In this document: piece after piece, positions 1 through 50,328 of the stretch
Numbering within the stretch: the stretch's first letter is position 1
Layout: every line of letters starts with the position of its first letter
IMG/VR virus record: IMGVR_UViG_3300024259_000003
Length of the DNA stretch: 50,328 bases
Direction: 5' to 3' (one strand)
DNA from: a virus
Notes under the pieces: model-generated
Told to the model about the DNA's origin: nothing
The model's database searches: none
What the model saw: the letters and a program-made list of their open reading frames with translations, nothing else
Program-made: the position numbers and the translations under genes

Positions 1-127
1 GCGCGACAATTATAACCGGATATTGATAAGAAGCGGTGAGGGAAATGCCTTTGATTTCGAGACTGTATCGGATCTTTACTTTGTGTTTGTTGCTGTTGAT
101 GATAGCAACGTCAAGTATTCAAGTGAT
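1..127. repeat. Terminal direct repeat, left copy (identical to 50202..50328); assembly overlap of a circular or circularly permuted genome
   Basis: Bases 1-127 (gcgcgacaattataaccgg...gtcaagtattcaagtgat) recur verbatim as the last 127 bases of the window. Confidence 0.95.
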
Positions 128-640
128 CCAGTATTCTCAAACATTTGGGGTCAAGGTCAAATCCCTCCAGATAGAGATGATCTTGGTGATGAGCTGGTTC
201 AATACGAAACTCTTTCAAATCCATCTTATCAAGCGGGAACGGCTGACGATGCTGTGGCTGCCGAGTTTAGTGCTGCTGATTTTAAGCAAAGCGATGTAAC
301 TCCAATTGTAAAAAAACGGATTATGTACAAGCATCGAACCGGATATCAAACACTTATTATAACGTGTGCGATAAAAATTGATGCTGACACTGGATATGTG
401 AAGGGATCTCTTACCACCAGAGGCGGGTCCGAGGTGTCCGGGAAAAACGCAACTGGATCAACAACAAACGCAAGTTACGAGGATGTTGTGCTTGAAATTG
501 ATGTTTCATCAGGGCTTACCGTTGGGACTCGATACGAGCTTGAAATCTTGATATGGAACTCCGATCCGACTCCGGGATCATTAACATTTTTAGAAGACGC
601 AGTTTCATTGGAAATTGTGAAAAACATCGAGGTGTACTAA
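2..640 (+). CDS. Tail fibre / receptor-binding protein, C-terminal part of the ORF that starts at 49282
   Basis: Same reading frame as 49282.. across the 127-bp repeat. Track ORF 23..640 is only the piece after an internal TTG. Confidence 0.7.
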   Translation, partial: RDNYNRILIRSGEGNAFDFETVSDLYFVFVAVDDSNVKYSSDPVFSNIWGQGQIPPDRDDLGDELVQYETLSNPSYQAGTADDAVAAEFSAADFKQSDVTPIVKKRIMYKHRTGYQTLIITCAIKIDADTGYVKGSLTTRGGSEVSGKNATGSTTNASYEDVVLEIDVSSGLTVGTRYELEILIWNSDPTPGSLTFLEDAVSLEIVKNIEVY

Positions 641-1369
641 ATGAAAAGACTGATTTTAACATTAACAATATTCGTGGCATTGATGCTGGTCTCCTCGATC
701 TCCGATTCCGCGACTCCGGTTAAAAATCCGAATGTTACCGAGTACCGCGAAGCCTTCATGATGGGTGGTGAACACTCCTATTTTTATTTTGAGGGGCAAG
801 ATACAATCAGTCCTGCCGGAGGTGTCGATTCAACCGGGTTCGATTCGATTATGACAACCGGACCGCTTAATGTTGGATGGCTGGATGCTGATTCTATGGG
901 TACTTATCCTAATTGGACAAAATTTGATTCAGTGACATGGCAAGATCCAACAATGTGCTGGCTATGGCTTCGGGCTGACTCGAACTCTTATGTCGACGGG
1001 ACTGTTACTGGATACGGGGAGTACATCCTTCCTGATGACCCTGATAGTGCTATTCCTGATAGTGTTGGATTTGCCAAAATAATAGTTCAGTATATGCTCA
1101 ATGTTGATGACTCTGATAATTCTTACTCTGCATGGTTCGCAGATACCTCAAATGTCGTGGCTCAGGACGGAAAGTGGAATTCAGAGGATTATGGGATATG
1201 GACATATGAAGAGCTTATCGGTCCTATCTCAACAGCAAGAATGATCGGGGCATGGTGGATATACAATATCAAGATCCCGCCATCGGGGATTATTGATATC
1301 ACAATTGAATCCGTTGACGACATGCGCGAGACACCAATCTACAAGTGGAGAGTAGTATGCGCTCATTAA
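641..1369 (+). CDS. Secreted protein of unknown function (Sec-type signal peptide)
   Basis: N-terminus MKRLILTLTIFVALMLVSSISDSA has a basic n-region, a hydrophobic core and small residues before a likely cleavage site. The ATG directly abuts the tail-fibre stop (taaATG). Confidence 0.6.
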   Translation: MKRLILTLTIFVALMLVSSISDSATPVKNPNVTEYREAFMMGGEHSYFYFEGQDTISPAGGVDSTGFDSIMTTGPLNVGWLDADSMGTYPNWTKFDSVTWQDPTMCWLWLRADSNSYVDGTVTGYGEYILPDDPDSAIPDSVGFAKIIVQYMLNVDDSDNSYSAWFADTSNVVAQDGKWNSEDYGIWTYEELIGPISTARMIGAWWIYNIKIPPSGIIDITIESVDDMRETPIYKWRVVCAH

Positions 1370-2355
1370 GAATTTGGACAATCATTCTCCTGTTGGTGAT
1401 AATAGCGTCGACCGGATTTGCACAGCGAGGTCAGCAGCTCAGGTATGGTCGAGGAGGTAATGGCCATCTCGTTCACCTCGGTAATCCATTAACGATCGAC
1501 GGAACGCTGTATCTCGTCTCTGATGGTGATACGGTCAGAATCGATCCCGGTACAGAGCTTAATATCTTGCAAGTGAATGTCAACGGGACAACGATGTTCT
1601 CTGTTGACACTACCGGAATTGTATATCTCGCCAGCAATCTGCAGATGGCTAATGATGTTTATCTGCAAGCCTACAACAATGCAGATGATGCTTGGCTTGA
1701 TATGATCAAGATCAATGCTTCGGATGAATTGGTCACCGGATCTGATCTAGTGATGGGATTGCTCGATATTGTACCGGGGTCTAATATCGCTCTTGCCAAC
1801 ATGGACACGTTGACTCAGGCTGGCGGTTCGGTCGCATTAGGAGAGTTGTCTTATCAGTTTAAGGTCGGGAACTCCGGACTGATTGAGATATATACTGCCT
1901 ACGATGGCGCGGGTGCGTTTGATAGCTCGCGGGTTGATATAAACACTATCCTTCATGTCACTGGTGATATCAGGAACAATGGAACATCGCACTTTACTGA
2001 CATCTATAATGTGGGCAAGTACATATCTACCCCTCCGACAGACAGCCTGTATCTCGCTGCTGAGACCATCATCTCTACGCATGAACTTGAGTTTATTGGA
2101 GGTTCTGGTGGAGCGGTAACAATGACATCTACTCCAACAATTGTCGCTGGAGTTGCAGCAGGTCAGGTGATTGAATTGATCGGGCTTGACGACGCGAACA
2201 CTATCACGCTTCAGGATGAAACTACTGTTGCCGGGACAACCCTTGAGATGGCAGGTGATGTGAGCTTCGCTTTAGGGATTAATGATGTCATTTCATTCCG
2301 GTGGACTGGTGCAGCTTGGGTCGAGAGGTATCGGTCAGATAACGATAACGATTAG
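1357..2355 (+). CDS. Secreted fibre-like protein (signal peptide, Gln at predicted +1)
   Basis: GGAG at 1347-1350 lies 6 nt before ATG 1357. N-terminus is MRSLRIWTIILLLVIIASTGFA|QRGQ. The rest is Gly/Thr/Asn/Val-rich with a repetitive beta-type composition. Confidence 0.6.
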   Translation: MRSLRIWTIILLLVIIASTGFAQRGQQLRYGRGGNGHLVHLGNPLTIDGTLYLVSDGDTVRIDPGTELNILQVNVNGTTMFSVDTTGIVYLASNLQMANDVYLQAYNNADDAWLDMIKINASDELVTGSDLVMGLLDIVPGSNIALANMDTLTQAGGSVALGELSYQFKVGNSGLIEIYTAYDGAGAFDSSRVDINTILHVTGDIRNNGTSHFTDIYNVGKYISTPPTDSLYLAAETIISTHELEFIGGSGGAVTMTSTPTIVAGVAAGQVIELIGLDDANTITLQDETTVAGTTLEMAGDVSFALGINDVISFRWTGAAWVERYRSDNDND

Positions 2356-2363
2356 GGGATGAG

Positions 2364-3131
2364 ATGAATAAATTACTCTTAATACTGCTAATCCCGATAA
2401 TTTGTTTCGGGCAGACCATTGGCGGTGCTGATGCTAACAATGATGTTGATCTCCCCGGGGATGTGAATATTGCTGGTGCGCTACATGTTACCGGCAATCA
2501 AGCATGTCATGGCGAGATGTGGATGTATGAATCATCGGGCGAATTGACGGTCGCAATAGCTAACCAATACTATGCGGTCAATGGTGTTCTTGAGGCTGGC
2601 GAACTGTGTGATTGGACATTTGTCGCTGGATCTAATGGATCAGGAGCCATAACAAACTCGGGTGGGACTGCGATTAATATTGCGGATACAGATCATGGTC
2701 TGATATCTGGTGATTACGTGAATGTTCAATCCGTGAATCACATGGGATCATCTGTTGTCACATACGTTGATGCGAACAATTTCACCGTCGCAATCGCCTA
2801 CGTCGGCGATGAGGCTTGCACATGGGACGAGGGTGATTACCTCCTTGCCGGGGCTACTGCTGCGGGGAGATATCTTATGAACATGAGTTTTTCTGGTAGT
2901 AGCGGAGCGCAACCATCTAAAGAGTACAAGATTGAAGGCGTGATCAATTCGACCCACATTGATGAGATTGCAATAGAAATTATCACAACCGCGAATCTCC
3001 ACAATGGCGCGGGATCTTCTGCACTTATTACGGTCGCTGCTGGTGATCGGGTGTGGACTCAGATTAAGAATACTCAAGACACGCAGAACTTCAGCTATGA
3101 ACATGCGAACATAAATTTGCACAGGATATAA
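2364..3131 (+). CDS. Secreted protein with a jelly-roll (C1q/TNF-like?) C-terminal pattern
   Basis: N-terminus is MNKLLLILLIPIICFG|QTIGG. The C-terminal ...AAGRYLMNMSFSG...ITVAAGDRVWTQIKN... resembles fibre-head jelly rolls (weak, by eye). Confidence 0.55.
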   Translation: MNKLLLILLIPIICFGQTIGGADANNDVDLPGDVNIAGALHVTGNQACHGEMWMYESSGELTVAIANQYYAVNGVLEAGELCDWTFVAGSNGSGAITNSGGTAINIADTDHGLISGDYVNVQSVNHMGSSVVTYVDANNFTVAIAYVGDEACTWDEGDYLLAGATAAGRYLMNMSFSGSSGAQPSKEYKIEGVINSTHIDEIAIEIITTANLHNGAGSSALITVAAGDRVWTQIKNTQDTQNFSYEHANINLHRI

Positions 3132-3132
3132 G

Positions 3133-3984
3133 ATGCGATATCTTAACCTAATACTGATCCTTGCACTATTCCTGCCGATCACAGCGACGGCTCAATATCG
3201 AGATATTGTAATTGATAACTCGAAGTCATTTGATGTTGTGGTTGCGAACGGGGCATATCAGGATGTTGTTGTTGGGTCATCGTTGGCATTTGTAAATGAG
3301 TACTCTTTGAACTTCGACTCGATAGATGACTTTGGTGACATCGTAACATTAACTTTAGATCTGTCAGGTACATCCGACTTTACTGTTCAGATGTGGGCTA
3401 AAATTCCTGTGGGCGAGGGCGACTACTTAATGGCTCAATCTCATGCAAACCCACCTTCTTACGCTACTGATTGGGGTTTAGCTGTTGGTGGGTCTATGTT
3501 CTGGATGAGATCGAAAACTGTTGGATTGGTTACTGATTATGATGATAATGCTTGGCATCACTTTGTAATGAGCTGGAACAAGAGCGCAGAGACTTTTGAA
3601 GGTTTCGTTGATGGATCTTCAAAAGGCACATCTGCTGTTGTTACTGGCTATGGTGGTATGTCTTCTGTCAAGGTATCTACTCGTGGCGACGGAACTTCTA
3701 GTTTCTCGGGAGGCAATGCTGACGAGATTGCTATTTGGACAGGTGTCGCATTGGGATTGAGCGAGGTGGTTGCATTGTATAATTCTGGAAATCCAACTGA
3801 CTTATCATCGAACTCTGGTAATTATGTTAGTTCTTCAAGCTTATTAGTTTGGCTAAGAAATGGTGATGGTACAGAAGGGGGAACAGGAGCAAAGGTTTAT
3901 GACATGTCAACCAATTCTTATGATTGCACTCTCAATAACATGGACAATTCGGATTATGAACTCGACGTTCCATCAAATCCATAA
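3133..3984 (+). CDS. Secreted LamG / concanavalin-A-like lectin domain protein
   Basis: Signal peptide MRYLNLILILALFLPITATA|QYRD. FTVQMWAK...NAWHHFVMSWN...FVDG...ADEIAIWTGVALGLSEVVALYNSGNP matches the Laminin_G_3-type pattern (W..v..t.., DE.rIw...Ls..Ei..ly). Confidence 0.7.
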   Translation: MRYLNLILILALFLPITATAQYRDIVIDNSKSFDVVVANGAYQDVVVGSSLAFVNEYSLNFDSIDDFGDIVTLTLDLSGTSDFTVQMWAKIPVGEGDYLMAQSHANPPSYATDWGLAVGGSMFWMRSKTVGLVTDYDDNAWHHFVMSWNKSAETFEGFVDGSSKGTSAVVTGYGGMSSVKVSTRGDGTSSFSGGNADEIAIWTGVALGLSEVVALYNSGNPTDLSSNSGNYVSSSSLLVWLRNGDGTEGGTGAKVYDMSTNSYDCTLNNMDNSDYELDVPSNP

Positions 3985-3993
3985 GGATACGCA

Positions 3994-4287
3994 ATGAAAC
4001 TAATTATAATGATACTCATATTGGCGGTTGTCTCAATTTCGTTGGCAGATGACACTACGGTATATCTAATTATTCCGACAGCCGATATCACCGATGAGAT
4101 GTATGTAAATTCGCACCAGAAGGATAATGGATCCGCAAGAGTTTCTATTGATGGAGTGCTGACGCTTTTTTCATATCGAGGTACTAGCATCCCTGAATGT
4201 TTTGTGATGTATAAAAGTTACTCAAAATTCGAGATGAGACTGATTGTAGATGATCCTGATGGTCGGTGGTATCGGGATGAAGAGTAA
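3994..4287 (+). CDS. Small secreted protein
   Basis: MKLIIMILILAVVSISLA|DD signal-like N-terminus; 97 aa. Confidence 0.5.
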   Translation: MKLIIMILILAVVSISLADDTTVYLIIPTADITDEMYVNSHQKDNGSARVSIDGVLTLFSYRGTSIPECFVMYKSYSKFEMRLIVDDPDGRWYRDEE

Positions 4288-4373
4288 CGATACCCGGTTG
4301 ACTATATGGTTATAAAGGTTGCATTTCAGATAGAACAGGTTCTTTATTCATTAAGTTTACAGGAGTGTATAAT

Positions 4374-5039
4374 ATGGGATTTAAAAGGATATTGTTGGTA
4401 GCAATACTTTTCCTTGCAGTATCAAATATTTGTTATTCAATAAGCTCTTTGGATTCGGAAACAGAGATTTCGATTCGCACTCCCAATCAAGATGATGTTA
4501 ATGTTTTCGATTGGTACGTTGCAAATGAGTTCCTGATCAATGTATCAGAAGATCGGTATGGGATTAATAAATTTTCATGCTCCTTGATGGGTGCCGTTGA
4601 GCGAGAGAATGGGATTGAATATTCTGAACACAAAGCACGGTTGACCTATCTGCTTCCATTCTATCTGATCAAATCAGAATTCCGGACCCATTACAAAGAA
4701 GCTCAGAAAATCGATGATCAAATCTTTACATTGGGATGGTCAGCGAGTTACATTAATAGTGCGCGTCGTGAAATTATATTTGGTGCAGGTCTTGGGGTAA
4801 AAGCAACATCGTACCGATCGCCCAATGTAGCCTTTGATTTAAGGATTCCAATGCCGGGAGAAGATGGAAGATGCAATCTCACATTGATTTATGGTGAAGC
4901 TCCTATATGGGATATCAATGTCGAAACGCTACCAGTGAAACGTGGTAAGGTCAAGCACAAAGTTGTCTTCAGGTATTACACGAGCGGAGACAAGCAAACA
5001 TACAGTCTTTCATACAAAATCGGGGTTCGATTACTATGA
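4374..5039 (+). CDS. Secreted protein, possible small outer-membrane beta-barrel (Lom/OmpX-like moron?)
   Basis: AGGAG at 4360-4364 lies 9 nt before ATG 4374. Signal peptide is MGFKRILLVAILFLAVSNICYS. Alternating hydrophobic strands occur throughout (FTLGWSASYI, IIFGAGLGVKATSY, CNLTLIYG, KVVFRYYTS, YSLSYKIGVRLL at the C-terminus). Confidence 0.4.
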   Translation: MGFKRILLVAILFLAVSNICYSISSLDSETEISIRTPNQDDVNVFDWYVANEFLINVSEDRYGINKFSCSLMGAVERENGIEYSEHKARLTYLLPFYLIKSEFRTHYKEAQKIDDQIFTLGWSASYINSARREIIFGAGLGVKATSYRSPNVAFDLRIPMPGEDGRCNLTLIYGEAPIWDINVETLPVKRGKVKHKVVFRYYTSGDKQTYSLSYKIGVRLL

Positions 5040-5392
5040 GCAATAAGCAAATGTGGTCGATGCTTGGTGGATTGACGGGCATACTTCTTCTCCTAATTGG
5101 GGTGTTGTGGTCGCAAACTAATGATTCACTCAAGACTCTTGAGGCAAAGAAGGCCAGTAAGGAGTTTGTTACCTCTACATATAAAGATGCGGTTGATCGA
5201 GATGGCGTAACGAAGTCTGTTGCACTCCATCTCGATCCAGTAAATGTCAAGATTAAAAACATTGAATCTGACATCACCGAGATCAAGGATGCACAGAACA
5301 AGCAGCACGATCAATTCAATGAGTTTCAAAAATCATTGAATAAAATGATGGGTATGATGGAGCGAATAGACGAGCGAACTAAAAAGGAGTGA
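5036..5392 (+). CDS. N-terminally membrane-anchored coiled-coil protein (i-spanin- or holin-associated candidate)
   Basis: One TM segment (LGGLTGILLLLIGVLW) followed by a charged, helical-looking tail. Lies upstream of the endolysin. Confidence 0.35.
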   Translation: MSNKQMWSMLGGLTGILLLLIGVLWSQTNDSLKTLEAKKASKEFVTSTYKDAVDRDGVTKSVALHLDPVNVKIKNIESDITEIKDAQNKQHDQFNEFQKSLNKMMGMMERIDERTKKE

Positions 5393-5395
5393 CCT

Positions 5396-5800
5396 ATGGA
5401 TTTATCCTTAATCAAAGAGCTGGTTTTGGGTATACCTGTTGTCGGGGATCTAGCCATTAATGATCCGTTGGCAGTCGGTGGTGGAGGCTTGTTATCTGTT
5501 GTGATTTTATTTGCGATCGCGAAGTTCTTGAATAGAAAAAAACTCCGTAGAGTGGCATATCGATTTATGTCCCGGATGAATAAACTACTCGGAGCATTTG
5601 ATATCCCTGTTATTTCTGGTAAAAGCGAGGAGTCAATTAAAAACGCATTCCGGACAACGATGGTGGATATCTCAATATCAATTATTGCTGCAAAGCTCAA
5701 TATCAATCCTGATCGTCTCTATGATTCAATAGTCAAAGGGTTGAAGGATCTACGTTTCAAAAGTACTGCCGAAGAAAAAAAATACAGGCTTAAGAAATGA
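5396..5800 (+). CDS. Membrane protein, holin candidate
   Basis: Hydrophobic segments LVLGIPVVGDLAI and GGGGLLSVVILFAIAKFL are followed by a basic stretch NRKKLRR. Good SD (aaaaggag) before the ATG. Confidence 0.35.
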   Translation: MDLSLIKELVLGIPVVGDLAINDPLAVGGGGLLSVVILFAIAKFLNRKKLRRVAYRFMSRMNKLLGAFDIPVISGKSEESIKNAFRTTMVDISISIIAAKLNINPDRLYDSIVKGLKDLRFKSTAEEKKYRLKK

Positions 5801-5991
5801 GAAACACATGGAACTGTTTAATTCCCTCAAAGGCCCCGCTACCAAACGAAGGGATACCAGTAAATTGTGCTGGTCACTCTTTTAAGGTAATGAGTGGAGT
5901 TTATAAATACGAATCAGGCGGGTGGTGGTGGCTGTCTGAGGGTGAGTGGGTGGAGTTTTCAAGCCCAATTTACTGGTCCTATTTACAATAG
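5797..5991 (+). CDS. Hypothetical Trp-rich small protein
   Basis: ORF overlaps the upstream stop (ATGA); no recognisable motif. Confidence 0.4.
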   Translation: MRNTWNCLIPSKAPLPNEGIPVNCAGHSFKVMSGVYKYESGGWWWLSEGEWVEFSSPIYWSYLQ

Positions 5992-6027
5992 ACCAAACGC
6001 AACATTAAAAAACGGAGGTTAAGTCAA

Positions 6028-6381
6028 ATGTCTACGTACCTAGACAGAATAATTGAGTCAGTGGATGAAGTAAGGAATTATTGGGAGAATTTGTTTACAG
6101 GTGAATTTAGTCTTAATGAGGTTACGGATCTCATTTCATCACTTGTTGAATCCGCAGAATCAATTATTATTGATCCCGGAAATGGCGAAGCAAAGCATGC
6201 GCTCGTAAAAGAGGCATTCAGTTACTTCGACAAGGAGTATAAACTGATTCAGCATATCGATGATATGATTTCGTTACCATTTTTCCTTGAACCATTTGAC
6301 GGGAAAGTTCTTGAATTGCTTGTTGATGCAATCATCACAGCAGCAGTATTAGTGTTTAATAAAACTATTTGGAAAAAGTGA
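6028..6381 (+). CDS. Hypothetical protein with a C-terminal hydrophobic segment (lysis-cassette member?)
   Basis: SD ggagg before the ATG. C-terminus is LLVDAIITAAVLVFNKTIW. Lies immediately upstream of the endolysin. Confidence 0.4.
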   Translation: MSTYLDRIIESVDEVRNYWENLFTGEFSLNEVTDLISSLVESAESIIIDPGNGEAKHALVKEAFSYFDKEYKLIQHIDDMISLPFFLEPFDGKVLELLVDAIITAAVLVFNKTIWKK

Positions 6382-6384
6382 ATA

Positions 6385-6870
6385 GTGAGGCGTATCGATT
6401 ACCTCATTTTTCATATCTCCGTTTCCGATTGTGGTGATGCTGATGAGATTCGTCGCTGGCATATCGATGGAAACGGATGGGATGATATCGGCTATCACTG
6501 GGTGATTCTGAATCCCTATAAGGATCAGGATTCATTTGTTAATAAAAGGCCAGTGATTCTTGATGATGGAAGAATCGAATCCGGTCGACCATTTAACACG
6601 CCCGGGGCGCACGTTGCTGGTTATAATTGGAACTCGATCGGAATTTGCTTTGTAGGGAAAGGGATGGTAACTGGAAGGCAATTGATATCAGCAAAGAATC
6701 TCATGTTCAGTTTGCTTCAGAAAGGGATAATTACCCCGGACACAAAAGTTATGGGCCACTACGAAATTGATGAACATAAAACGTGTCCGGACATTGACGC
6801 TGACATCCTTCGTGAAATGTTCCGTCAGGCTTGCGACGTACACAACCTGATTGCGAATAAAACGTCCTGA
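6385..6870 (+). CDS. Endolysin, N-acetylmuramoyl-L-alanine amidase (Amidase_2 / PGRP, T7-lysozyme-like)
   Basis: YLIFHISVS...IRRWH...GWDDIGYHWVI...GAHVAGYNWNSIGICFVGKG...GHYEID.HKTCP carries the Zn-ligand and fold pattern of Amidase_2. Confidence 0.85.
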   Translation: MRRIDYLIFHISVSDCGDADEIRRWHIDGNGWDDIGYHWVILNPYKDQDSFVNKRPVILDDGRIESGRPFNTPGAHVAGYNWNSIGICFVGKGMVTGRQLISAKNLMFSLLQKGIITPDTKVMGHYEIDEHKTCPDIDADILREMFRQACDVHNLIANKTS

Positions 6871-6936
6871 AGCGTATTGTTTCTCATCCCGAGCCGTTCG
6901 TTGCGTAGATATGCCTTAAAACGACGATCTGGTGCA

Positions 6937-6965
6937 TTGACAATTGAATGAATAATTGCTATATT
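6937..6965 (+). promoter_or_regulatory. Sigma70-type promoter for the tRNA (TTGACA-17 nt-TATATT)
   Basis: TTGACA at 6937-6942, a 17-nt spacer, TATATT at 6960-6965. The expected start site falls at or next to tRNA base 1 (6971). Confidence 0.6.
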
Positions 6966-6970
6966 TGATT

Positions 6971-7042
6971 TGCGGGGTAGAGCAGAGGTAGCTCACGAGG
7001 CTCATAACCTCGAGGTCGCTGGTTCGAATCCAGCCTCCGCAA
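6971..7042 (+). tRNA. tRNA with anticodon CAU (Met, or Ile2 if lysidinylated); no encoded CCA
   Basis: The cloverleaf folds by hand. Acceptor tgcgggg/ctccgca has 7 bp with one G-U. D arm is gagc-agaggta-gctc. Anticodon arm is cgagg-ctCATaa-cctcg. Variable loop is aggtc. T arm is gctgg-ttcgaat-ccagc, and the discriminator is A. The 3' flank is 'ca', not CCA. There is no run of three consecutive G-C pairs next to the anticodon loop, so it is not initiator-like. Confidence 0.9.
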
Positions 7043-7100
7043 CAAAGATTCTCCTTGCCAGAGATGGCACCTCCCGGTTCGGAGTGACGATCCGGACCAT

Positions 7101-7136
7101 GCCCCGGACTTGACCCGCCCGGGGCAACTTTTTTTC
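7101..7136 (+). terminator. Rho-independent terminator after the tRNA
   Basis: gccccgg(7101-7107)...ccggggc(7119-7125) stem followed by aacttttttt. Confidence 0.7.
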
Positions 7137-7165
7137 AAATATCGTGGCAAGTGAAGAATTATCTA

Positions 7166-7194
7166 TTGCATAGCACATTAAAAGATTGTATTTT
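7166..7194 (+). promoter_or_regulatory. Candidate promoter of the recombination/replication operon (TTGCAT-17-TATTTT)
   Basis: TTGCAT at 7166-7171, a 17-nt spacer, TATTTT at 7189-7194. Confidence 0.4.
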
Positions 7195-7199
7195 TAAGT

Positions 7200-7287
7200 G
7201 TCGATAACCAGTATACGCCTTACATACGTCATGTGAGGTAACTCCAAGTTTTCAAAGTCAAGCGCAATTTCCTCACTGGTTATCGAC
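7200..7287. repeat. 13-bp perfect inverted repeat (gtcgataaccagt / actggttatcgac) separated by 62 bp
   Basis: Arms at 7200-7212 and 7275-7287. Lies in the leader of the operon that starts at 7337. Confidence 0.8.
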
Positions 7288-7336
7288 CCCAACCTAAAGA
7301 GATGTTGCGCTTGTCTGATTTTAAAGGGGTCTAAGT

Positions 7337-8713
7337 ATGCCAATCGAAGGCACACATGTAATTGCTCTCAAGGTGGAAGGATTTTTAAGGCTCGAAGCTA
7401 TCGAGCTTGGGTTCTCCCCGGAGAGTGGGATTGTTCAAATAACTGGCAAAAACAAGCAAGGAAAATCATCGGTCGTGAAGTCGATGGTATACTTGCTCTC
7501 GGGCGGGAAGATCAAGCCTGATGATCCAGTTTATAAGGGCATGGACAAAGCGAAGCTCAGCGTCACGCTGGACGATAAAACGGAGATTGTGATCTCCTGC
7601 CCGAAGGACGGTAAGCAAACGCTCACCATCACGAATGCCAACAAAGCAAAGTATTCATCTCCACAAGCCCTCCTTAAAAAGCTCATCGGACCATCATCAT
7701 TTGATTTGAGGACTTTCTCTCAGGAAAATTCCAAAACTGCCGAGGGCAGACGGAAGCAGGTCGAACTCCTCCTTCAAGCGATCGGGAAGCGCGACGAGCT
7801 ATTTGAGATCGAGCAGAAGCAATCGCAAATCGATGAACAGCGAAAGCTCATCAATGCAGATCTGCGGTCACTCAATGCTCGGGTAGCTAAGCTCCCAACA
7901 CCTGATGAAGAAACGGACCCCGAGCTGAAATCAGCCGACAGTATTTTTGATCGGATGCAACAGGCTGAAAAGAAAAACGAAAGCAACAAGCGCATCCGGG
8001 ATGAGAAATCATCCGCATATGATAAGATGATCGAGCTTGGCGAGGATGTTACTTCCGATGAGGCAAAGGTATCGAATCTCGAAATCGCGCTGAAAGAAGC
8101 AAGAGATAGTCTGATTCAGGTAAAAGGGTACGCTGAGGATGCCTCAGAATATTACGAGATGATCTCCGCTGAAGCGAATGGGCTTGCCGATGACATTCCG
8201 ATCGATCCGATCCGCGAAGAGCTAAAAAACATCAACGCACTGAACGAACCGATCAGGCAGAAAATTGAATACCTCAAGCTCGTCGCTGAGGTTGAATCTG
8301 TTGATAAAAATTCAAAAGAGCATACAGCGAAGATCCGGAAGCTCAACGATGACAAAGCGAGATTACTCACTGATGAGAACTCCCCGGTTAAGGGACTCAC
8401 GCTTGATCCTGATGGTGATGGATTGCTATACAAACGAATCAGGCTTCAAAGTATAGCAGAATCGGAAAGTGTCTTGATCGGACTCGAGCTTGTGGTTAAA
8501 CAGGACCCGCAGATTAAAACGATTTTCATCGAGCGGGGAGAATCACTTGACTCTGAGACTATGGCCGGAATTGATGCTTTCTGTAAAGAAAATAATATTC
8601 AATGTATTGTCGAGCGGGTTGACGAGACTGGCAAGGTCGGGATCGTGATTGAAGCAGGAGCGGTCAAAGCAGACAACCGGGTTGAATCTTCAGAACTGAA
8701 ATTTAAGGATTAA
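7337..8713 (+). CDS. SMC/RecF/SbcC-like AAA ATPase with a coiled-coil middle
   Basis: N-terminal Walker A ITGKNKQGKSSVVKS, a long charged coiled-coil-like centre, and a C-terminal IKTIFIERGESLD Walker-B-like motif. Confidence 0.7.
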   Translation: MPIEGTHVIALKVEGFLRLEAIELGFSPESGIVQITGKNKQGKSSVVKSMVYLLSGGKIKPDDPVYKGMDKAKLSVTLDDKTEIVISCPKDGKQTLTITNANKAKYSSPQALLKKLIGPSSFDLRTFSQENSKTAEGRRKQVELLLQAIGKRDELFEIEQKQSQIDEQRKLINADLRSLNARVAKLPTPDEETDPELKSADSIFDRMQQAEKKNESNKRIRDEKSSAYDKMIELGEDVTSDEAKVSNLEIALKEARDSLIQVKGYAEDASEYYEMISAEANGLADDIPIDPIREELKNINALNEPIRQKIEYLKLVAEVESVDKNSKEHTAKIRKLNDDKARLLTDENSPVKGLTLDPDGDGLLYKRIRLQSIAESESVLIGLELVVKQDPQIKTIFIERGESLDSETMAGIDAFCKENNIQCIVERVDETGKVGIVIEAGAVKADNRVESSELKFKD

Positions 8714-8722
8714 GGGGTCGAT

Positions 8723-9346
8723 ATGAAAGATCGGTTGTTTGATATCACTGATGAAATGAAGTCCATCGAGGCTGTCTTGCTTGACAATGGAGGCGAGCTT
8801 ACCGAGGAGTTGATCGAAAGACTTGATGCCTCCGAGGAGAAGCTCGAGAAAAAGGTCGAGAATTACGTTTATGTTATCAATCATAACGACGCGCGAGCAA
8901 AGGAGGCTGGTGGTGAAGTTAAGCGGATATCAGCTCTGAAAAAAACGCGAGTCTCATTAGTTGATTCATTAAAAGCGAGGTTGCTTTATTACCTCGAGCT
9001 GGTCAAGAAAACCAAAGTTGAGACACCAACCGCCGTCGTATCGGTTGTGAACAATTCTCAGCCGAGTGTTGAATGGATGGGAACTGATCTTGATATCCCG
9101 GAAGCGATGAAGCTCGAGAAGGTCGAACTTGATAAAAAATATCTCGTCGCGCTGGTTATCGAGCATCTCGAATCAGTATTCAGACATCAAGATCTCAACA
9201 CGAAGATCGCGCAGATGAAAGAGAGCGGTGAAGACTGCACGAAGGAAGTAAGCGAGTTCAATATTCTCGGCAACGACTTAGAGGAAGCCGGGATTCCAAT
9301 TGATTATATTTGGGTCACGAAAGGCAAACATCTAAGGATTAGATAA
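8723..9346 (+). CDS. Siphovirus Gp157-like protein
   Basis: The coiled-coil N-terminus (ITDEMKSIEAVLLDNGGELTEELIERLD...) and the position between the ATPase and the ERF recombinase are typical of Gp157 family members (by eye). Confidence 0.45.
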   Translation: MKDRLFDITDEMKSIEAVLLDNGGELTEELIERLDASEEKLEKKVENYVYVINHNDARAKEAGGEVKRISALKKTRVSLVDSLKARLLYYLELVKKTKVETPTAVVSVVNNSQPSVEWMGTDLDIPEAMKLEKVELDKKYLVALVIEHLESVFRHQDLNTKIAQMKESGEDCTKEVSEFNILGNDLEEAGIPIDYIWVTKGKHLRIR

Positions 9347-10593
9347 TGGGAAAAAAGAAAATTGAAGAGAAAAACGATCCTGTCGACATTACTCCTGTCG
9401 CGGGATTAAATCTCTACCAGAAGCTCAACCGGATACAGGCGGAGATTGAAACCGCACCTCAAAGCGGTCACAATAAGTTTAGCGGGTATTATTACTCAAC
9501 CGAGGATGACATAATGAGTGTGTTGAGACCCCTGCTTATTAAGTACTCAATCGCCATTATCTGTACTCCAGTCAAGCACGGGACTTGGAGACAGGTAACA
9601 ACATCAAAGGGAAAAATTGAGTTTATTGAGGAGGTAAGACTCAAGGTCAAGATTGTTAACGCTGACAATCCGGAAGAGAAAGAGTCAATCGTTGTTTATG
9701 GATACGGTCAGGATGGCGGAGATAAAGGGACGTACATCGCATATACTGGCGCGAAAAAGTACGGGCTTTCAATGATGTTCCTTATCTCATCCGCGCTCGA
9801 TGTTGGACACGATAAGGAATCCGGAGACAATGTGAGTGGCAACAACACGCAACGACCACCGCAGAATCAGAACCAGCGACCACCAGCGCGGAAGCAACAA
9901 CAACAGCGTCCAGTTAATCAGATCAACAATCAACCACCATCTGCACCACCAGCGCAGCAACAACAGACTCCACCGCCAGCGCAGAAAACATTTGCTCCTC
10001 CGGTAGACCAGACTCCGGCTCAACCAGCGCGGACACCGTTCGATGTGCAGGGGTTTATTAACGAGGTGTTACGATCCCCAGACTTCGGGACATTTACGGT
10101 TAAGGAAGAATCTCTTCGCAACTTGGATGCTGCATTGAGCGGATCGATCATCGTTGACGATAAGAAAAAGATTGTTCAAACATTATCACAGCGAGCGCGC
10201 GACCTGATCCTTCAGGCTAAAACGTGGAACGAGATTGATGTTTGGGATCAATGGCTTGCATCTGAACCGACTCTGAAAATGTACTCAGAGCAATCAAGAA
10301 AGTTTATACAAAAAGCGGTTGATACAGTACATGCCGGATTTAATAACAAGTCAGGCGAGACTCCGGTTGAAAATCCAGCAGAGACTCCCGGACCTGATAC
10401 CGCAGACCAAAAGGTTGATCCCGGTCAGCCTACGTTTACAGATATCGCGACTAAGTTCAAATCAGCATCGGAGGCGGAGATAGCATCGTTATCTGAGGAG
10501 TATGGTGGTTTCATCTTCGCACTCGGAGATGCTGAATCTAAAAAACTGAATTCGATAATCGATATGCGGAAAAAGATTCTCGGAAAGATTTAA
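9346..10593 (+). CDS. ERF-family single-strand annealing protein with a Q/P-rich linker and a C-terminal extension
   Basis: LYQKLNRIQAEIE...GHNKFSGYYYSTEDDIMSVLRPLLIKYSIAI is the characteristic ERF N-terminal pattern. A low-complexity QRPPQNQNQRPP...QQQTPPPAQ stretch follows. Confidence 0.7.
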   Translation: MGKKKIEEKNDPVDITPVAGLNLYQKLNRIQAEIETAPQSGHNKFSGYYYSTEDDIMSVLRPLLIKYSIAIICTPVKHGTWRQVTTSKGKIEFIEEVRLKVKIVNADNPEEKESIVVYGYGQDGGDKGTYIAYTGAKKYGLSMMFLISSALDVGHDKESGDNVSGNNTQRPPQNQNQRPPARKQQQQRPVNQINNQPPSAPPAQQQQTPPPAQKTFAPPVDQTPAQPARTPFDVQGFINEVLRSPDFGTFTVKEESLRNLDAALSGSIIVDDKKKIVQTLSQRARDLILQAKTWNEIDVWDQWLASEPTLKMYSEQSRKFIQKAVDTVHAGFNNKSGETPVENPAETPGPDTADQKVDPGQPTFTDIATKFKSASEAEIASLSEEYGGFIFALGDAESKKLNSIIDMRKKILGKI

Positions 10594-10607
10594 GGAGGGA
10601 TGATTAA

Positions 10608-10868
10608 ATGTCAAACACCTTTGAATGCCCGAACGACTTTGTTTGTGACGGATGTAGGTTATCTCAATGTGATTTGCGGGATGAGCATTATCCAAATGTC
10701 CTTGAAATTATAGAAGAAATCTCGAATTTAAAAACACTGCAAGACGTTCGGGACCATCGCTCATGTAACGATACAACATTAGATGAGGTTGGTCCCATAG
10801 ATTCTTCTGAGATTCAATACCTATGGGACGAAAAGACAGTGCTACTGTTCATAAAAAAGGAGGATTAG
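10608..10868 (+). CDS. Hypothetical Cys-containing small protein
   Basis: SD aaggaggg before the ATG; CPNDFVCDGC motif. Confidence 0.45.
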   Translation: MSNTFECPNDFVCDGCRLSQCDLRDEHYPNVLEIIEEISNLKTLQDVRDHRSCNDTTLDEVGPIDSSEIQYLWDEKTVLLFIKKED

Positions 10869-11431
10869 TGCGGGACTTTACACTTATTCGGATCGATGGA
10901 GAAAAGGTGTGCCTGAAGTACTACGTTGAGCAACCTGATTTGACGGTTGTAAATTACACGTTAGAATCAAAGGGCGCACCTGATCCGCTGTTCAGGAAAA
11001 CGATGCACTCTCTCAACCAATATATTGCAGACTTGGTTGAGGTGAGTGAACAGGGATGGGACTCGGATATTGCTATCAAGGATGTAAGATTCAACCTTGA
11101 TGATGATATGGTTTTCGTTAGCTTTGTAGCGATCAAGCCAATGGCAAATTCATCTGAACCATTTGAATTTACAACACCGCAGAGACCTGTTGCTCGAGGT
11201 GTTAAATCAAAGCCGGAAGAATCTGGCGGACCATCCGACGAGGAGGCTGATGGTGATAATAAGACTCACTATCTCCCGCTCGAATGCGTCAAGATCCTTG
11301 CTCGACTTTGCAAGCGAGCCGAGGATTACATCGAGGGAAAGCGAGCGCAACTGACTCTCGATTTAGAGGTGATTCCAAACAAGCATAAATCTAAGGCTCA
11401 GATCGAGGACGAGCGCAAGGAAGTAGCTTGA
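10868..11431 (+). CDS. Hypothetical protein
   Basis: GGAGG at 10859-10863 lies 4 nt before GTG 10868, which overlaps the upstream stop. The track ORF begins earlier at 10823 inside the upstream gene. Confidence 0.45.
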   Translation: MRDFTLIRIDGEKVCLKYYVEQPDLTVVNYTLESKGAPDPLFRKTMHSLNQYIADLVEVSEQGWDSDIAIKDVRFNLDDDMVFVSFVAIKPMANSSEPFEFTTPQRPVARGVKSKPEESGGPSDEEADGDNKTHYLPLECVKILARLCKRAEDYIEGKRAQLTLDLEVIPNKHKSKAQIEDERKEVA

Positions 11432-13149
11432 TAATTTGTTTCGACAACGACAGGTATGTCGCTCAGTCTGATTTTCGTGAGCGACATACCTTGAAAGATG
11501 CGGGGTTTTATTGGGATGGCGATTCGAAACTCTGGTTCACTCGCGATCCTCGAAGAGCTGTTAAGCTGTTTGACTCCTGCGACGATACCTGCCGGGAGGT
11601 TCTCACCGGATTAGGAATAACACCAATCATTGAAAAGGAAAAAAAGATTGTATCATCCCGCGCACTGGATGCTGATGTTGATATCCCATCACCGAAAGGG
11701 CTTGTATACATGCCCTTTCAGCGAGCAGGGATAGACTTTATTAATAACCGGGGTAATGTACTCCTCGGGGATGAGATGGGATTGGGGAAGACTATTCAGG
11801 TCATCGGGTATATGAATTTGTGCGATGGTGAATTAAGCTCGGACATGAACTCTGATTCGTTTGATAAACTATATAAATATCCGGTGCTGATTATCTGCCC
11901 GGCATCACTGAAGCGGAACTGGTATAATGAAATTACAAAATGGATGGTGCGAAGGCACAGCATCGTTATTGTAGATTCGAAAATGAAGCGGATTCCGAAA
12001 GCGGAAATCGTGATCATTAATTATGACATCGTGAAGAAATTTCCAGAACAATTAAAAGCGTTCGATTGGGAGATGATAGTCTGCGACGAAGCGCATCGAT
12101 TGAAGAATTCTAAAACGGGATGGACCAAAGTAATCCTCGGGAAAAAGACTTTTGAATATAAGGGCGGGATTATTGAGGGTGATGCAAAGCTGGTTTATCT
12201 GACGGGGACTCCAATCCCTAACCGGGTGAAGGAGATCTGGACATTGATATCATCGCTCGATTCAGTACAATGGCGCAATCAGACGATATTTAAACGGAGG
12301 TATTGCGCAGCATATAAAAATGATTATGGTCAGTATGTCGATACAGGCGCATCTAACCTTGATGAATTGCAGGAAAAAATGAGGTCTTCGTTTATGATCA
12401 GGCGTTTGAAGTCTGAAGTATTGACCGATCTCCCGAGTAAGTTTAGACAGGTGATTGAGCTTGATTGTAACTCTCCAGAATGCAGAAGAGTTGTTGCTCA
12501 AGAGTTATTGGAGTATGATCGAAAAAAAGCTCGTATTAAATCTCTAGTAAGTAAGGTTGATTCTCTTCGGAAGTCTGATAATACAGATGCATACAAGGAC
12601 GCTGTGCAGAAACTTAATCAAGCTCGGTTGACTGATCTATCTAAAATGGCAGAGCTTCGTAAGGCTACCGCAGTCGCGAAACTCCCGCAAGTAATATCGC
12701 ATATAAAATCAGTATTGCTCGAGACTAAAAAGGTTGTCGTTTTCGCTCATCATCATGTGATACTGGATGAGCTGATCAGGCAATTTCCGGGAAGCGCGGT
12801 TCTCACTGGTAAAACATCAACATCCGGAAGTAAGAGGCAAGACAGCGTTGATTATTTTCAGGAAACCCCGGAATGTAGGGTATTCATCGGACAAATTCAG
12901 GCTGCAGGGGTGGGAATTACATTAACAGCATCCAACGTTGTTATATTTGCCGAGATGGACTGGACACATGCGAACATGGCGCAAGCTGAGGATCGATGCC
13001 ACCGGATCGGACAAACAAAAGGTGTGCTGGTTCAGTACTTGGTACTCGACGGAAGTCTGGATTCACATATGGCTAAAATGCTCGTTTCGAAAGAAGATAT
13101 CGCGAATCGGGCTTTAGATAAAAAACCAATGCAAGCAGAATTAATTTAA
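11428..13149 (+). CDS. SNF2-family helicase/translocase
   Basis: LGDEMGLGKTIQ (motif I), DEAHRLKN (II), LTGTPIPNR (III), QAEDRCHRIGQ (VI). Confidence 0.9.
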   Translation: MIICFDNDRYVAQSDFRERHTLKDAGFYWDGDSKLWFTRDPRRAVKLFDSCDDTCREVLTGLGITPIIEKEKKIVSSRALDADVDIPSPKGLVYMPFQRAGIDFINNRGNVLLGDEMGLGKTIQVIGYMNLCDGELSSDMNSDSFDKLYKYPVLIICPASLKRNWYNEITKWMVRRHSIVIVDSKMKRIPKAEIVIINYDIVKKFPEQLKAFDWEMIVCDEAHRLKNSKTGWTKVILGKKTFEYKGGIIEGDAKLVYLTGTPIPNRVKEIWTLISSLDSVQWRNQTIFKRRYCAAYKNDYGQYVDTGASNLDELQEKMRSSFMIRRLKSEVLTDLPSKFRQVIELDCNSPECRRVVAQELLEYDRKKARIKSLVSKVDSLRKSDNTDAYKDAVQKLNQARLTDLSKMAELRKATAVAKLPQVISHIKSVLLETKKVVVFAHHHVILDELIRQFPGSAVLTGKTSTSGSKRQDSVDYFQETPECRVFIGQIQAAGVGITLTASNVVIFAEMDWTHANMAQAEDRCHRIGQTKGVLVQYLVLDGSLDSHMAKMLVSKEDIANRALDKKPMQAELI

Positions 13150-13159
13150 GGGGTCGGAA

Positions 13160-49281: not shown

Positions 49282-50328
49282 ATGGCTACCAATGTAAAAA
49301 AGATATTCAGTTCAACAGAGCTAACGGGTTACGCTGTTCACTTATTCAGGTCGAGCGAGGCATGGCTTGATGATGTCCCGAATCATGTCGTTGGCGCATT
49401 CTCTGTAAATCAGTACGGTTTTACATACGACATTGATGACACAAACATATGGGACCCAACGGTAATATATAAAATAGTCAAATCTTCTGATGGTGGCACA
49501 ACAGAAACCATCATTCAAGACAATTTGATGCTTGCTGATATTAAAACAGCAACGGATCTCGAGACTCACATCGCTGACACAACGACTCATGGATCTGCTA
49601 CTGCGCTCGTTGGCGTTGATGAGACACAGACATTGACAGCAAAAGTAATCAATGCCCCGGACAACACGATCCAGAATCTTGATGGGTCTAATCACAAAGC
49701 AGACACATCCGGTAATGAGCATCCTGCAATGATGGTCAAGCCCGGATCTGATGATACTGTATTTCATATAGTCACGTCGACAACGACCGTATTGAGTATT
49801 CAGGCTGCTAATGCTGCCAAGAGCGCGAACCGGATATTCAGATTCATCGCGGGATCTATTGACATTCAAGATAAAGATGGCAATGATATCGTCATCACAG
49901 GACTCGCTGCAGCAACATTGACAAAAGAAGCTGTGCGATTTGACGAATTTGATGCTCTTAATACTCGCGTAACGAACCTTGAGGGCGGAGGTACATTCAC
50001 TGGATCTCCGGTTGTAAGTGGAAGTGTGACGATACAGCGACAGATCAGAGGTGTAAATAGGATCGTTTCAACAAGACTCCGACTCGGTTTTGAGATGGAT
50101 GTCACGAATCAAGGCAACCCTACTCGTTGGGAAATATTCAGCGGTGAAAGTCAGCCGAATGTTTCTGTTGGATCAATAACCGCTGCCGAGTTGGATTATC
50201 TGCGCGACAATTATAACCGGATATTGATAAGAAGCGGTGAGGGAAATGCCTTTGATTTCGAGACTGTATCGGATCTTTACTTTGTGTTTGTTGCTGTTGA
50301 TGATAGCAACGTCAAGTATTCAAGTGAT
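49282..50328 (+). CDS. Tail fibre / receptor-binding protein, N-terminal part; the ORF runs off the window end and continues at 128..640 (about 519 aa in total)
   Basis: ATG at 49282 just after the preceding tail gene. The frame is open for 349 codons to the last base. The last 42 codons equal codons 2..127, which read on to the stop at 638-640. It follows the tape measure and tail-tip genes. It is absent from the ORF track because there is no stop inside the window. Confidence 0.7.
   Translation, partial: MATNVKKIFSSTELTGYAVHLFRSSEAWLDDVPNHVVGAFSVNQYGFTYDIDDTNIWDPTVIYKIVKSSDGGTTETIIQDNLMLADIKTATDLETHIADTTTHGSATALVGVDETQTLTAKVINAPDNTIQNLDGSNHKADTSGNEHPAMMVKPGSDDTVFHIVTSTTTVLSIQAANAAKSANRIFRFIAGSIDIQDKDGNDIVITGLAAATLTKEAVRFDEFDALNTRVTNLEGGGTFTGSPVVSGSVTIQRQIRGVNRIVSTRLRLGFEMDVTNQGNPTRWEIFSGESQPNVSVGSITAAELDYLRDNYNRILIRSGEGNAFDFETVSDLYFVFVAVDDSNVKYSSD
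50202..50328. repeat. Terminal direct repeat, right copy (identical to 1..127)
   Basis: Verbatim identity with 1..127 read directly from the sequence; unique genome length is therefore 50201 bp. Confidence 0.95.

Follow-up and report, generated by a model that had tools for sequence, protein, structure and literature searches.

The six consecutive genes at positions 641-5039 of IMG/VR virus record IMGVR_UViG_3300024259_000003, a stretch of 50,328 nucleotides (nt) that was analysed whole and is called the window here, encode proteins (P1 to P6, in gene order) whose N-termini, judged from their sequences, are genuine cleavable Sec/signal peptidase I signal peptides, and export of all six is well supported. 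We propose that these proteins fall into two groups, P1 to P5 being apparent fibre- and lectin-module proteins that would bind glycans or envelope structures after export, and P6 a predicted outer-membrane beta-barrel that appears to belong to the lysis cassette. Taken as a whole, this two-part explanation is one to which we give somewhat less than an even chance.

Six consecutive genes encode proteins with predicted signal peptides

Signal-peptide calls were made by rule-based scoring and by reading the sequences by eye, and both assigned all six N-termini to the Sec/signal peptidase I type. The N-termini are built alike: 1-2 basic residues (n-region) come first, then 12-18 uncharged hydrophobic ones (h-region) and then a site that has small residues at -3 and -1 (c-region), giving a total signal length of 16-24 amino acids (aa). 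All six genes lie on the plus strand. P1 (242 aa; 641-1369) has a signal of about residues 1-24 (641-712), with predicted cleavage at SSISDSA↓TP or alternatively at VSS↓IS, where the arrow marks the cleaved bond; P2 (332 aa; 1357-2355) would be cleaved at TGFA↓QRGQQ after residues 1-22 (1357-1422), P3 (255 aa; 2364-3131) at ICFG↓QTIGG after residues 1-16 (2364-2411), P4 (283 aa; 3133-3984) at ATA↓QYRD after residues 1-20 (3133-3192), P5 (97 aa; 3994-4287) at ISLA↓DD after residues 1-18 (3994-4047) and P6 (221 aa; 4374-5039) at ICYS↓IS after residues 1-22 (4374-4439).

The clustering of such genes is unlikely to be accidental. Six-frame screening of the 172 open reading frames (ORFs) with 60 aa or more for hydrophobic N-termini flagged 12, eight of which are plausible genes: P1 to P6, the neighbouring gene at 5036-5392 (membrane anchor and coiled coil) and a lipoprotein gene at 32022-32489. 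Seven of these eight adjoin one another in a genome of ~64 genes, and the chance of six consecutive genes among 8/64 is ~2e-5 by our own calculation (59 x C(58,2)/C(64,8)). Signals were also kept in relatives with 30-58% identity (proteins P0001, P0002 and P0006-P0008, and the gene downstream of P0001 on contig L002). The first-pass annotation had claimed a signal peptide for every ORF of the run and had named the lack of hydrophobic N-termini in related phages as evidence that would count against it; the six ORFs and their signals are where it placed them, and the hydrophobic N-termini are retained in the relatives.

Additional evidence comes from the residue that follows the cleavage site. 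A Gln at +1 of the signal peptidase I site characterises Bacteroidetes, Ignavibacterium and some Chlorobi, where it is called the 'Q-rule' (PMC5837995). It is found in three of the six window signals (those of P2, P3 and P4), in that of the P2 relative encoded on L002, and on L001, a contig of an unrelated phage, in 3 signals by automated site calls and up to 5 when alternative sites are read by eye. In seven proteobacterial-looking three-gene sets it occurs at 0/19 sites, which read A↓S, A↓A or A↓T. A fit to a lineage-typical site pattern would otherwise be hard to explain, and we therefore regard the proteins as real signal-peptidase substrates. The +1 Gln pattern is also suggestive of a host from a Q-rule lineage. 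In a scan of genomes for related prophages, only a Planctomycetales metagenome-assembled genome (MAG) and an Omnitrophica MAG came up.

The lipobox [LVI][ASTVI][GAS]C is absent from all six proteins. The only canonical lipobox lipoprotein of the genome is the product of 32022-32489 (plus strand, 155 aa, MRRLTVVFCLLIMIGVVG↓C), which is encoded far from the lysis cassette, just 5′ of a DNA methyltransferase gene and the terminase gene, and matches no family; it may serve in exclusion or be an o-spanin that has become displaced. P1 to P6, P0001, P0002 and the 771-aa protein of L001 have no NCBIfam match at E ≤ 1 to the C-terminal sorting domains of the type IX secretion system (TIGR04183, TIGR04131), which rules them out as type IX cargo, and a search of the six proteins and three neighbours with the PADLOC defence and exclusion models gave no match at E ≤ 0.01, ruling out a known defence or exclusion family.

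P1 to P5 carry fibre and lectin modules

By their sequence matches, P1 to P5 form a set of fibre- and lectin-module proteins, with P4 and P2 giving the clearest assignments. P4 has a LamG/ConA-like domain (PF13385) at residues 73-204 that scores above the Pfam threshold (35.4 bits against a cut-off of 27.6, E = 1.5e-8), a weak pentraxin match in the PDB agrees with LamG, and its C-terminal part is common to PHROG 347. The LamG lectin domain proposed earlier for one of the proteins is thus borne out. On L002, a contig from ENA, a signal-bearing N-terminus similar to that of P4 is encoded 3′ of the P2 homologue.

P2 is modular and fibre-like. Two stretches of it, the first ~90 residues with the signal and residues 95-206, are matched by P0001, a signal-bearing protein of 1001 aa that is encoded on L002 between the P1 homologue and the gene whose product starts like P4, with a signal. 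The C-terminal ~110 aa of P2 (residues ~215-332) are 37-54% identical to the C-termini of phage fibres with and without signals, including P0002 (1026 aa, signal-bearing, on L001), P0004 (463 aa, no signal) and the annotated tail fibre of the uncultured podovirus MW202898, which has an ordinary signal-less N-terminus. We tentatively assign this domain by sequence to the beta-sandwich type of PF25692, the phage depolymerase C-terminal family: P2 alone scores 17-21 bits against a Pfam gathering threshold of 25, 19 of 30 aligned relatives of the domain match the family (best E = 7.6e-8), and three database relatives have a precomputed match to it. The AlphaFold2 (AF2) model of P2 was weak, with a predicted local distance difference test score (pLDDT) of 48.6.

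The other three proteins are less readily placed. P1, with no assigned fold, has a single homologue, 58% identical, encoded on L002 directly 5′ of the P2 homologue. It contains 8 copies of D[ST][AILVMT], which we take to be the general O-glycosylation sequon of Bacteroidetes, where shuffled sequences would give 1.5; six keep their positions in the L002 homologue, and the sequon is not enriched in P2 to P6. P1 may thus be O-glycosylated. P3 has a weak match, below the Pfam cut-off, to the endosialidase beta-barrel PF12195 (E = 7e-4), and no homologue of it was found among the matches listed in the protein search, the IMG/VR loci or PDB sequences. P5 is small and has no assigned fold. Searches of Pfam, PHROG, NCBIfam, the IMG/VR loci and the PDB gave no informative match for P1, P3 or P5.

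PDB sequence searches with P1 to P4 and with a profile of the C-terminal domain found nothing significant, and no catalytic domain or beta-helix was detected in P1 to P5 by Pfam, PHROG and PDB sequence searches. P1 to P5 share no common mature N-terminal module. A protein search with the concatenated sequences had at least two P2 relatives among the matches listed, with little bearing on P1, P3 and P5, and searches with mature P2 and with the C-terminal-domain profile returned few proteins within the limits of their index. The earlier view of the products as adhesin- or receptor-binding-like modules holds for P4 (LamG) and P2 (fibre modules and a PF25692-type C-terminus), and P6 is a predicted barrel.

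Signal-bearing fibre genes recur in other uncultured phages

A scan of IMG/VR with an alignment of the P2 C-terminal domain gave 25 loci, 20 of them non-redundant, whose ORFs and N-termini were scored alike throughout. Across the 20 loci, signal-like N-termini were seen in 5/112 upstream genes (baseplate, fibre and others), compared with 11/20 genes that carry the C-terminal domain and 22/36 of the next two genes. The combined 33/56 compared to 5/112 upstream is a 13-fold enrichment (Fisher odds ratio 31, p = 6e-15). The arrangement, which the first-pass annotation could not map to a described system, is not special to this phage: signal-bearing fibre-like genes recur at the distal end of the tail module in ~20 uncultured lineages. 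In the common layout a signal-less fibre gene is followed by genes for a signal-bearing protein of 245-311 aa with the C-terminal domain, a signal-bearing protein of 122-148 aa and a signal-bearing protein of 680-750 aa, and finally by genes that resemble holin or spanin genes; three LamG domains are present in the large L014 protein.

Three signal-bearing genes follow the tail-fibre gene as a recurrent set at L016 7383-10647, L027 7401-10762, L032 4606-7864, L033 7344-10956, L034 7362-10877, L037 2923-6404 and L018 7518-8842. Different signal-bearing proteins of these IMG/VR phages have in common the signal and an adjoining module of ~55 aa, 66-70% identical, at the start of the mature protein (motifs A↓SSTRT and AA↓TRTID). 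The module, found in the first two proteins of the set and also at L026 8230, L035 8271 and L021 8243, looks from its distribution like a common docking module. The third protein of the set starts ..KIQ. The unrelated phage on L001 (JGI 3300033153 contig, 10 kb) encodes signal-bearing proteins of 1026, 771, 232, 139 and 185 aa, mostly with +1 Gln, interleaved with or before small membrane or coiled-coil, lysis-like proteins.

The C-terminal domain is also present on signal-less fibres (the MW202898 tail fibre, L017, L021, L022, L025, L035 and L036). Where the signal-less and signal-type domains occur in the same phage they are old paralogues that cluster by type and not by genome, and the P2 domain groups with the signal type. 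A decoy that carries the receptor-binding tip of the phage itself is unlikely, given this clustering by type and given that the 519-aa tail fibre encoded upstream of P1 shares nothing with P1 to P5. A conserved Cys pair (..T(A/Q)CT..G and ..(L/V/H)CD..) is confined to a signal-type subclade (L018, L033, L037) and absent from all signal-less fibre-type paralogues, as expected for proteins of an oxidising compartment.

Some related proteins were seen in other settings. On L014, the product of 12384-13976 (530 aa), whose N-terminus resembles a signal (..CRVALA↓QDN), matches PHROG 3287, 'virion structural protein' (2.8e-20), and has distant matches to a 'phage stabilization protein' or 'structural protein' of Pelagibacter, Rhizobium and other phages. 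L009 (MW202898.1) encodes at 9299-12052, 3′ of the tail fibre, a 918-aa 'caprin-2 domain protein' in which an internal start gives the signal-like N-terminus MFNKILIAIVFIITCLNAFS, so that the theme extends to an uncultured podovirus. In a Candidatus Omnitrophica MAG (L040, 7629-8312) a signal-bearing 227-aa protein with the C-terminal domain is encoded after three signal-bearing proteins and beside genes with panC-like and uvrA-like N-termini, so that the domain also occurs on cellular secreted proteins.

A tblastn search of GenBank with P2, P4 and four IMG/VR proteins found MW202898 and otherwise nothing, or distant matches of 22-30% identity, to structural or hypothetical proteins, for the 530-aa L014 protein; among GenBank phages these families were present only in MW202898. 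Scans of IMG/VR and JGI data with alignments of P1 and of P6 and with a 636-aa tail protein gave nothing, and P6 relatives were found at 0/25 of the IMG/VR loci with signal-bearing fibre genes. The searched literature held no description of signal-bearing fibre genes, and neither a cultured relative nor virion proteomics for any relative came to light.

The six genes form part of a late transcription unit

Gaps among the six genes range from -13 to +86 nt. P1 starts 1 base after the stop of the 519-aa fibre-like tail gene, which crosses the assembly junction, its 5′ part lying at 49282..50328 and its 3′ part at 1..640 (plus strand; coding 128-640, with 1-127 a repeat of the window end), as read from the translation and the terminal repeat; its product has no signal peptide and no Pfam or PHROG match. 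At the other end P6 overlaps the next gene (5036-5392) by 4 nt. Across the run there was no excess of sigma-70-like promoter sites (21 compared with 18.4 in shuffles) or of terminator-like sites (5 compared with 5.0), and its GC content of 0.39-0.47 equals that of the rest of the genome. These results indicate, from the gene layout, that the six are expressed late, on a transcript shared with the tail and lysis genes. A moron or lysogenic-conversion cassette is rejected on the same grounds, there being no promoter or terminator excess, no deviant GC content and tight packing.

P6 is a predicted outer-membrane barrel of the lysis cassette

P6 has few relatives: among 1.84 billion representatives searched exhaustively with phmmer there were just three homologues, each with a signal-like N-terminus. 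The AF2 model, built from the four-sequence alignment, begins with a signal helix, after which come 12 long strands (pLDDT 70, predicted template modelling score (pTM) 0.60). In a Foldseek search of the PDB with this model every match with E <0.007 was an outer-membrane barrel, including NalP, intimin/invasin beta-domains, designed 12-strand barrels and the porins KdgM and VhGalP (TM-score over the query (TMq) 0.52-0.56), and BFVD returned many predicted phage outer-membrane barrels (E 7e-6 to 1e-3, TM 0.4-0.55). The suggestion that the last protein is a small outer-membrane beta-barrel is in this way upheld by the model, which predicts 12 strands. P6 had no Pfam match at E ≤ 0.1, Ail_Lom included, and Ail, OmpX and OmpA align poorly to the model (TMq 0.26-0.33); P6 is rejected as a Lom/Ail member, with 12 strands and not 8 and no Ail_Lom match. 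Its likeness to autotransporter and intimin beta-domains is at the level of the fold only (E 1e-4 to 5e-4, TMq 0.41-0.47), and P6 is rejected as a type V translocator as well, having no passenger, no Pfam match and only 221 aa.

The genes downstream of P6 form a lysis cassette. The overlapping gene 5036-5392 (plus strand) encodes a protein of 118 aa that combines a membrane anchor at its N-terminus with a coiled coil, a candidate Rz-like i-spanin that matches PHROG 739 'Rz-like spanin' (E = 2.9e-4) and coiled-coil Pfam families. It is followed on the same strand by 5396-5800 (134 aa, a single-pass membrane protein and holin candidate), 6028-6381 (117 aa, C-terminal membrane segment, weak holin match to PHROG 6918, E = 0.004) and 6385-6870, the endolysin, an N-acetylmuramoyl-L-alanine amidase (Amidase_2 3.3e-12; PHROG 822 3.9e-25). 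The three P6 homologues are encoded among similar genes. In L011 the order is a 54%-identical homologue of 5036-5392, the P6 homologue and a 52%-identical homologue of 5396-5800; in L012 it is the P6 homologue, a coiled-coil protein with a C-terminal membrane segment and a homologue of 5396-5800; and in L013 it is a VanZ-like membrane protein, the P6 homologue, a coiled-coil protein with a C-terminal membrane segment, a small membrane protein and an Amidase_2 endolysin 41% identical to that of the window. In all four members of the family (4/4) the order is rearranged and linkage to lysis genes is kept.

Because all three homologues adjoin lysis genes, we assign P6 to the lysis cassette and not to the tail accessories. 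The six genes, presented by the first-pass annotation as one block between the tail fibre and the lysis cassette, are therefore not a single unit: the location given is right for P1 to P5, while P6 lies inside the lysis cassette and the upstream fibre gene crosses the assembly junction.

An Rz-like protein is present and no lipobox ORF was found between 4300 and 7000, and for these reasons we propose P6 as an outer-membrane lysis component. P6 would be translationally coupled to the Rz-like anchor and coiled-coil protein of 5036-5392, which fits the i-spanin layout, and might act as the outer-membrane partner in the last lysis step of a cassette without a lipoprotein o-spanin, a role that we consider as probable as its opposite. 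P6 is not itself an o-spanin, being a signal peptidase I barrel with no lipobox; that it works like a spanin partner is possible. Several observations speak against this role. Two of the three P6 homologues (L012 and L013) adjoin coiled-coil proteins with a C-terminal membrane segment, and an anchor placed in this way would put the coiled coil on the cytoplasmic side, contrary to what is expected of an i-spanin partner. In the periplasm a barrel exposes little that a spanin could grip, and the P6 model is moderate (pLDDT 70, TM-scores 0.4-0.56, four sequences).

Possible functions of P1 to P5

Established Sec biology holds that proteins with Sec signals are translocated and cleaved, and P1 to P5 could thus not join virions that assemble in the cytoplasm. 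They would be exported to the periplasm and mature there, P2, P3 and P4 gaining a new N-terminal Gln as in Q-rule organisms. Since no outer-membrane export signal is detectable, they would stay periplasmic until holin and endolysin act, and they would function outside the cytoplasm as glycan- or envelope-binding proteins. Mainly on parsimony, and by analogy with Llp or Cor, we favour the tentative reading that P1 to P5 may attach to receptors or envelope glycans that belong to the infected cell and its debris, masking receptors or protecting progeny from re-adsorption.

This preferred reading has evidence against it. Export of P1 to P6 is deduced from sequence alone. The Q-rule argument is only suggestive, because Shine-Dalgarno-like motifs precede about half of the window genes, AAGGGGTC recurs just before early-region genes, a sigma-70 promoter near consensus precedes tRNA-Met and the Bacteroidota-type promoter TTTG..TAnnTTTG has 0 matches in the window. 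Late expression is a poor fit to classical superinfection exclusion. In addition, the fibre modules, the signal-bearing relatives of 1000 aa and the shared N-terminal module look more like fibres that dock on virions.

Docking is the alternative that survives best. P1 to P5 could be accessory receptor-binding fibres that mature in the periplasm and attach to tails after the holin opens the membrane, or in the fresh lysate, and we regard this as possible if rather unlikely. Their modules are those of tail fibres, with the P2 C-terminal domain common to signal-less fibres, and their genes occupy the place usual for receptor-binding protein genes and share the transcript of the tail genes, in a phage with few other receptor-binding protein candidates. 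Close relatives differ by module swaps and in length (332 compared with 1001 aa), as receptor-binding proteins do, other phages have one mature ~55-aa N-terminal module on different signal-bearing proteins, and the signal-bearing L014 protein matches a 'virion structural protein' PHROG. However, P1 to P5 themselves lack a common mature N-terminal module, and docking would be limited to the short interval from holin triggering to dilution of the lysate. We know of no precedent in tailed phages and found none in the searched literature; two-compartment virion assembly is, to our knowledge, not known for Caudoviricetes. The fuller version, in which Sec-exported fibres fold in the periplasm with pyroglutamate, disulfides and possibly O-glycans and dock on finished tails after the holin breach, is a shade more doubtful still. 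If true, docking would extend to the signal-bearing fibre genes of ~20 IMG/VR lineages, with the N-terminal modules as docking domains.

We think it distinctly unlikely that P1 to P5 are instead free glycan-active factors, stored in the periplasm, released at lysis and acting on the capsule or exopolysaccharide of neighbouring cells or on the biofilm matrix. The depolymerase-associated Pfam family of the P2 C-terminal domain, the weak endosialidase beta-barrel match of P3 and the LamG/glucanase-superfamily domain of P4 are compatible with such activity, as are the Omnitrophica MAG protein, with a signal and the same C-terminal domain in a cellular context, and WceF, an exported trimeric tailspike fold that acts on exopolysaccharide (PMC7949094). 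Nevertheless, P1 to P5 have no detected catalytic domain or beta-helix and are short for depolymerases, and the known free depolymerases are released by lysis with no need for Sec.

That the proteins are not exported at all, their N-termini being uncleaved anchors or structural helices of ordinary tail components assembled in the cytoplasm, is very improbable. The position of the genes among tail genes and the h-regions of 16-18 residues in P1, P2, P4 and P6, at the long end for signal peptides, would agree with it. The total length of 16-24 aa is nevertheless typical of signal peptides, and the six unrelated proteins have in common only the n/h/c signal with small -3/-1 residues, whose +1 residue varies by phage group, with Gln sites that match the Q-rule. 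The 13-fold enrichment at this position in 20 loci, where upstream tail and baseplate genes almost never have such N-termini, also argues against it, as does P6, whose predicted barrel would require export. Least probable, by a hair, is a single secretion cassette in which P6, encoded directly 3′ of five Sec substrates and having NalP, EspP, AIDA-I, intimin/invasin beta-domains and FapF among its top Foldseek matches, would be a type-V-like or FapF-like 12-stranded translocator that puts P1 to P5 on the host surface, since the P6 homologues are linked to lysis genes (on contigs of 1.6-2.5 kb, with a VanZ-like upstream gene in L013), no P6 relative occurs in the 25 IMG/VR loci and the 12-stranded porins KdgM and VhGalP match as well or better by TM-score.

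Genome and other features of the window

The window starts and ends with a 127-bp exact direct repeat (1-127 = 50202-50328), and because of this terminal repeat we consider it a circular assembly of a genome of ~50.2 kb. The genome type is siphovirus-like. PHROG and Pfam matches identify the terminase large subunit (34328), portal (35515), prohead protease (37716), major capsid protein (38843), head-tail adaptor, tail tube (44115) and tape measure (45110-46843, plus strand), the last followed directly by two tail genes without a family match (46843-48753 and 48753-49271). The portal protein is ≤31% identical to any database sequence, and a blastn search of GenBank phages with window 1-8000 gave tRNA matches only. 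The same phage, recognised by an identical P4, is present in 23 other contigs from ENA, Logan and JGI samples, where the six products were called identically by independent gene callers (242, 332, 255, 283, 97 and 221 aa). No integrase was seen among the genes scanned, which covered part of the genome.

A sigma-70 promoter near consensus (TTGACA-17-TATATT, extended TG) lies within 6937-7043, directly 5′ of the one tRNA-Met gene (6971-7043); promoter and tRNA sit at the boundary between the lysis and the early/replication genes. The sequence AAGGGGTC occurs in 6 copies compared with 1.0 expected, at 7324, 8712, 13148, 13534, 23902 (minus strand) and 27102 (minus strand). At least five of the six copies lie a few bases 5′ of a start codon in the early/replication region, and it is probably a preferred ribosome-binding or regulatory motif. 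An Amidoligase_2 gene (4.5e-55) is found at 26227-27096 in a minus-strand block, and three separate DNA methyltransferase genes are found at 18263-18976, 30130-30816 and 32784-33926.

Comparison with known systems

Tailed-phage virions are taken to be wholly built in the cytoplasm, and most exported proteins known from phages are small factors for exclusion or conversion that occur singly. Lom and Bor of lambda, Cor of T1, phi80 and N15, and Llp of T5 are exported envelope proteins whose genes lie beside tail or receptor-binding genes, each being a single small gene. Of these, Llp and Cor hide the receptor that their phage itself uses; both are lipoproteins, as is Bor, and Lom is an 8-stranded barrel of the Ail family. 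Lom and Bor are morons expressed from the prophage. The genes of P1 to P6 likewise lie beside tail genes and encode signal peptides. In contrast to Llp, Cor, Bor and Lom, the window has five fibre/lectin-module proteins with no lipobox, encoded in a late operon without regulatory signals of its own.

Closer to P1 to P5 in kind are PblA and PblB of the Streptococcus mitis phage SM1, tail-fibre-like proteins that also serve as bacterial surface adhesins. They resemble P1 to P5, as read here, in being phage fibre-type proteins that act beyond the virion, and differ in lacking the signal peptides that P1 to P5 have; PblA and PblB reach the surface of their Gram-positive host through permeabilisation by holin and lysin. 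WceF of Pantoea stewartii, a tailspike-fold trimer acting on exopolysaccharide, is exported via a Tat signal peptide (PMC7949094). It is a cellular gene product with a Tat signal and a demonstrated beta-helix enzyme, whereas no beta-helix or catalytic domain was detected in P1 to P5. The phages of Porphyromonas gingivalis (Nixviridae) encode proteins of unknown function with signal peptidase I signals that expose an N-terminal Gln, which the authors, in the available excerpt of their report, read as an adaptation to the host Sec system and as potential outer-membrane modifiers (PMC10367356). Phage origin, signal peptidase I signals and an N-terminal Gln (here predicted for P2 to P4) are thus features that those proteins, as described in that excerpt, have in common with P1 to P6; the same excerpt mentions no fibre-module homology, contiguous block or tail-module position (PMC10367356).

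Together, these comparisons indicate that phage-encoded exported envelope proteins are already known, and that a late-operon block of signal-bearing fibre and lectin proteins is not described in the searched literature; the same applies to an outer-membrane barrel inside a lysis cassette. If P1 to P5 do bind the envelope or the lysate, they would represent a neglected layer of receptor masking, protection from re-adsorption or matrix conditioning. If they are instead added to virions after export, annotation pipelines that give every gene after the tape measure the label 'tail fibre' would mislabel these genes, and host-range prediction from receptor-binding proteins would have to allow for them.

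For P6, the nearest structural parallels are the viral outer-membrane barrels of BFVD (from uncultured Caudovirales, Cellulophaga phi17:2, Synechococcus S-CBWM1 and Vibrio nt-1), which match its fold and have no detectable sequence similarity to it. Because many of them match the P6 model, phage-borne outer-membrane protein genes are a known kind; we know of no reported link of the BFVD phage barrels to lysis cassettes. Lom is like P6 in being an outer-membrane barrel, and P6 differs from it by the missing Ail_Lom match, the 12 predicted strands and the linkage to lysis genes. Compared to the Rz/Rz1 spanins, 5036-5392 shares the i-spanin layout and P6, predicted to lie in the outer membrane, is in translational contact with it, a linkage kept in relatives. 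The o-spanin, however, is a small outer-membrane lipoprotein with a lipobox and P6 a barrel of ~200 aa with a signal peptidase I signal, and this barrel, conserved in lysis cassettes that have no o-spanin, is a candidate for the missing outer-membrane disruption step where no spanin is found.

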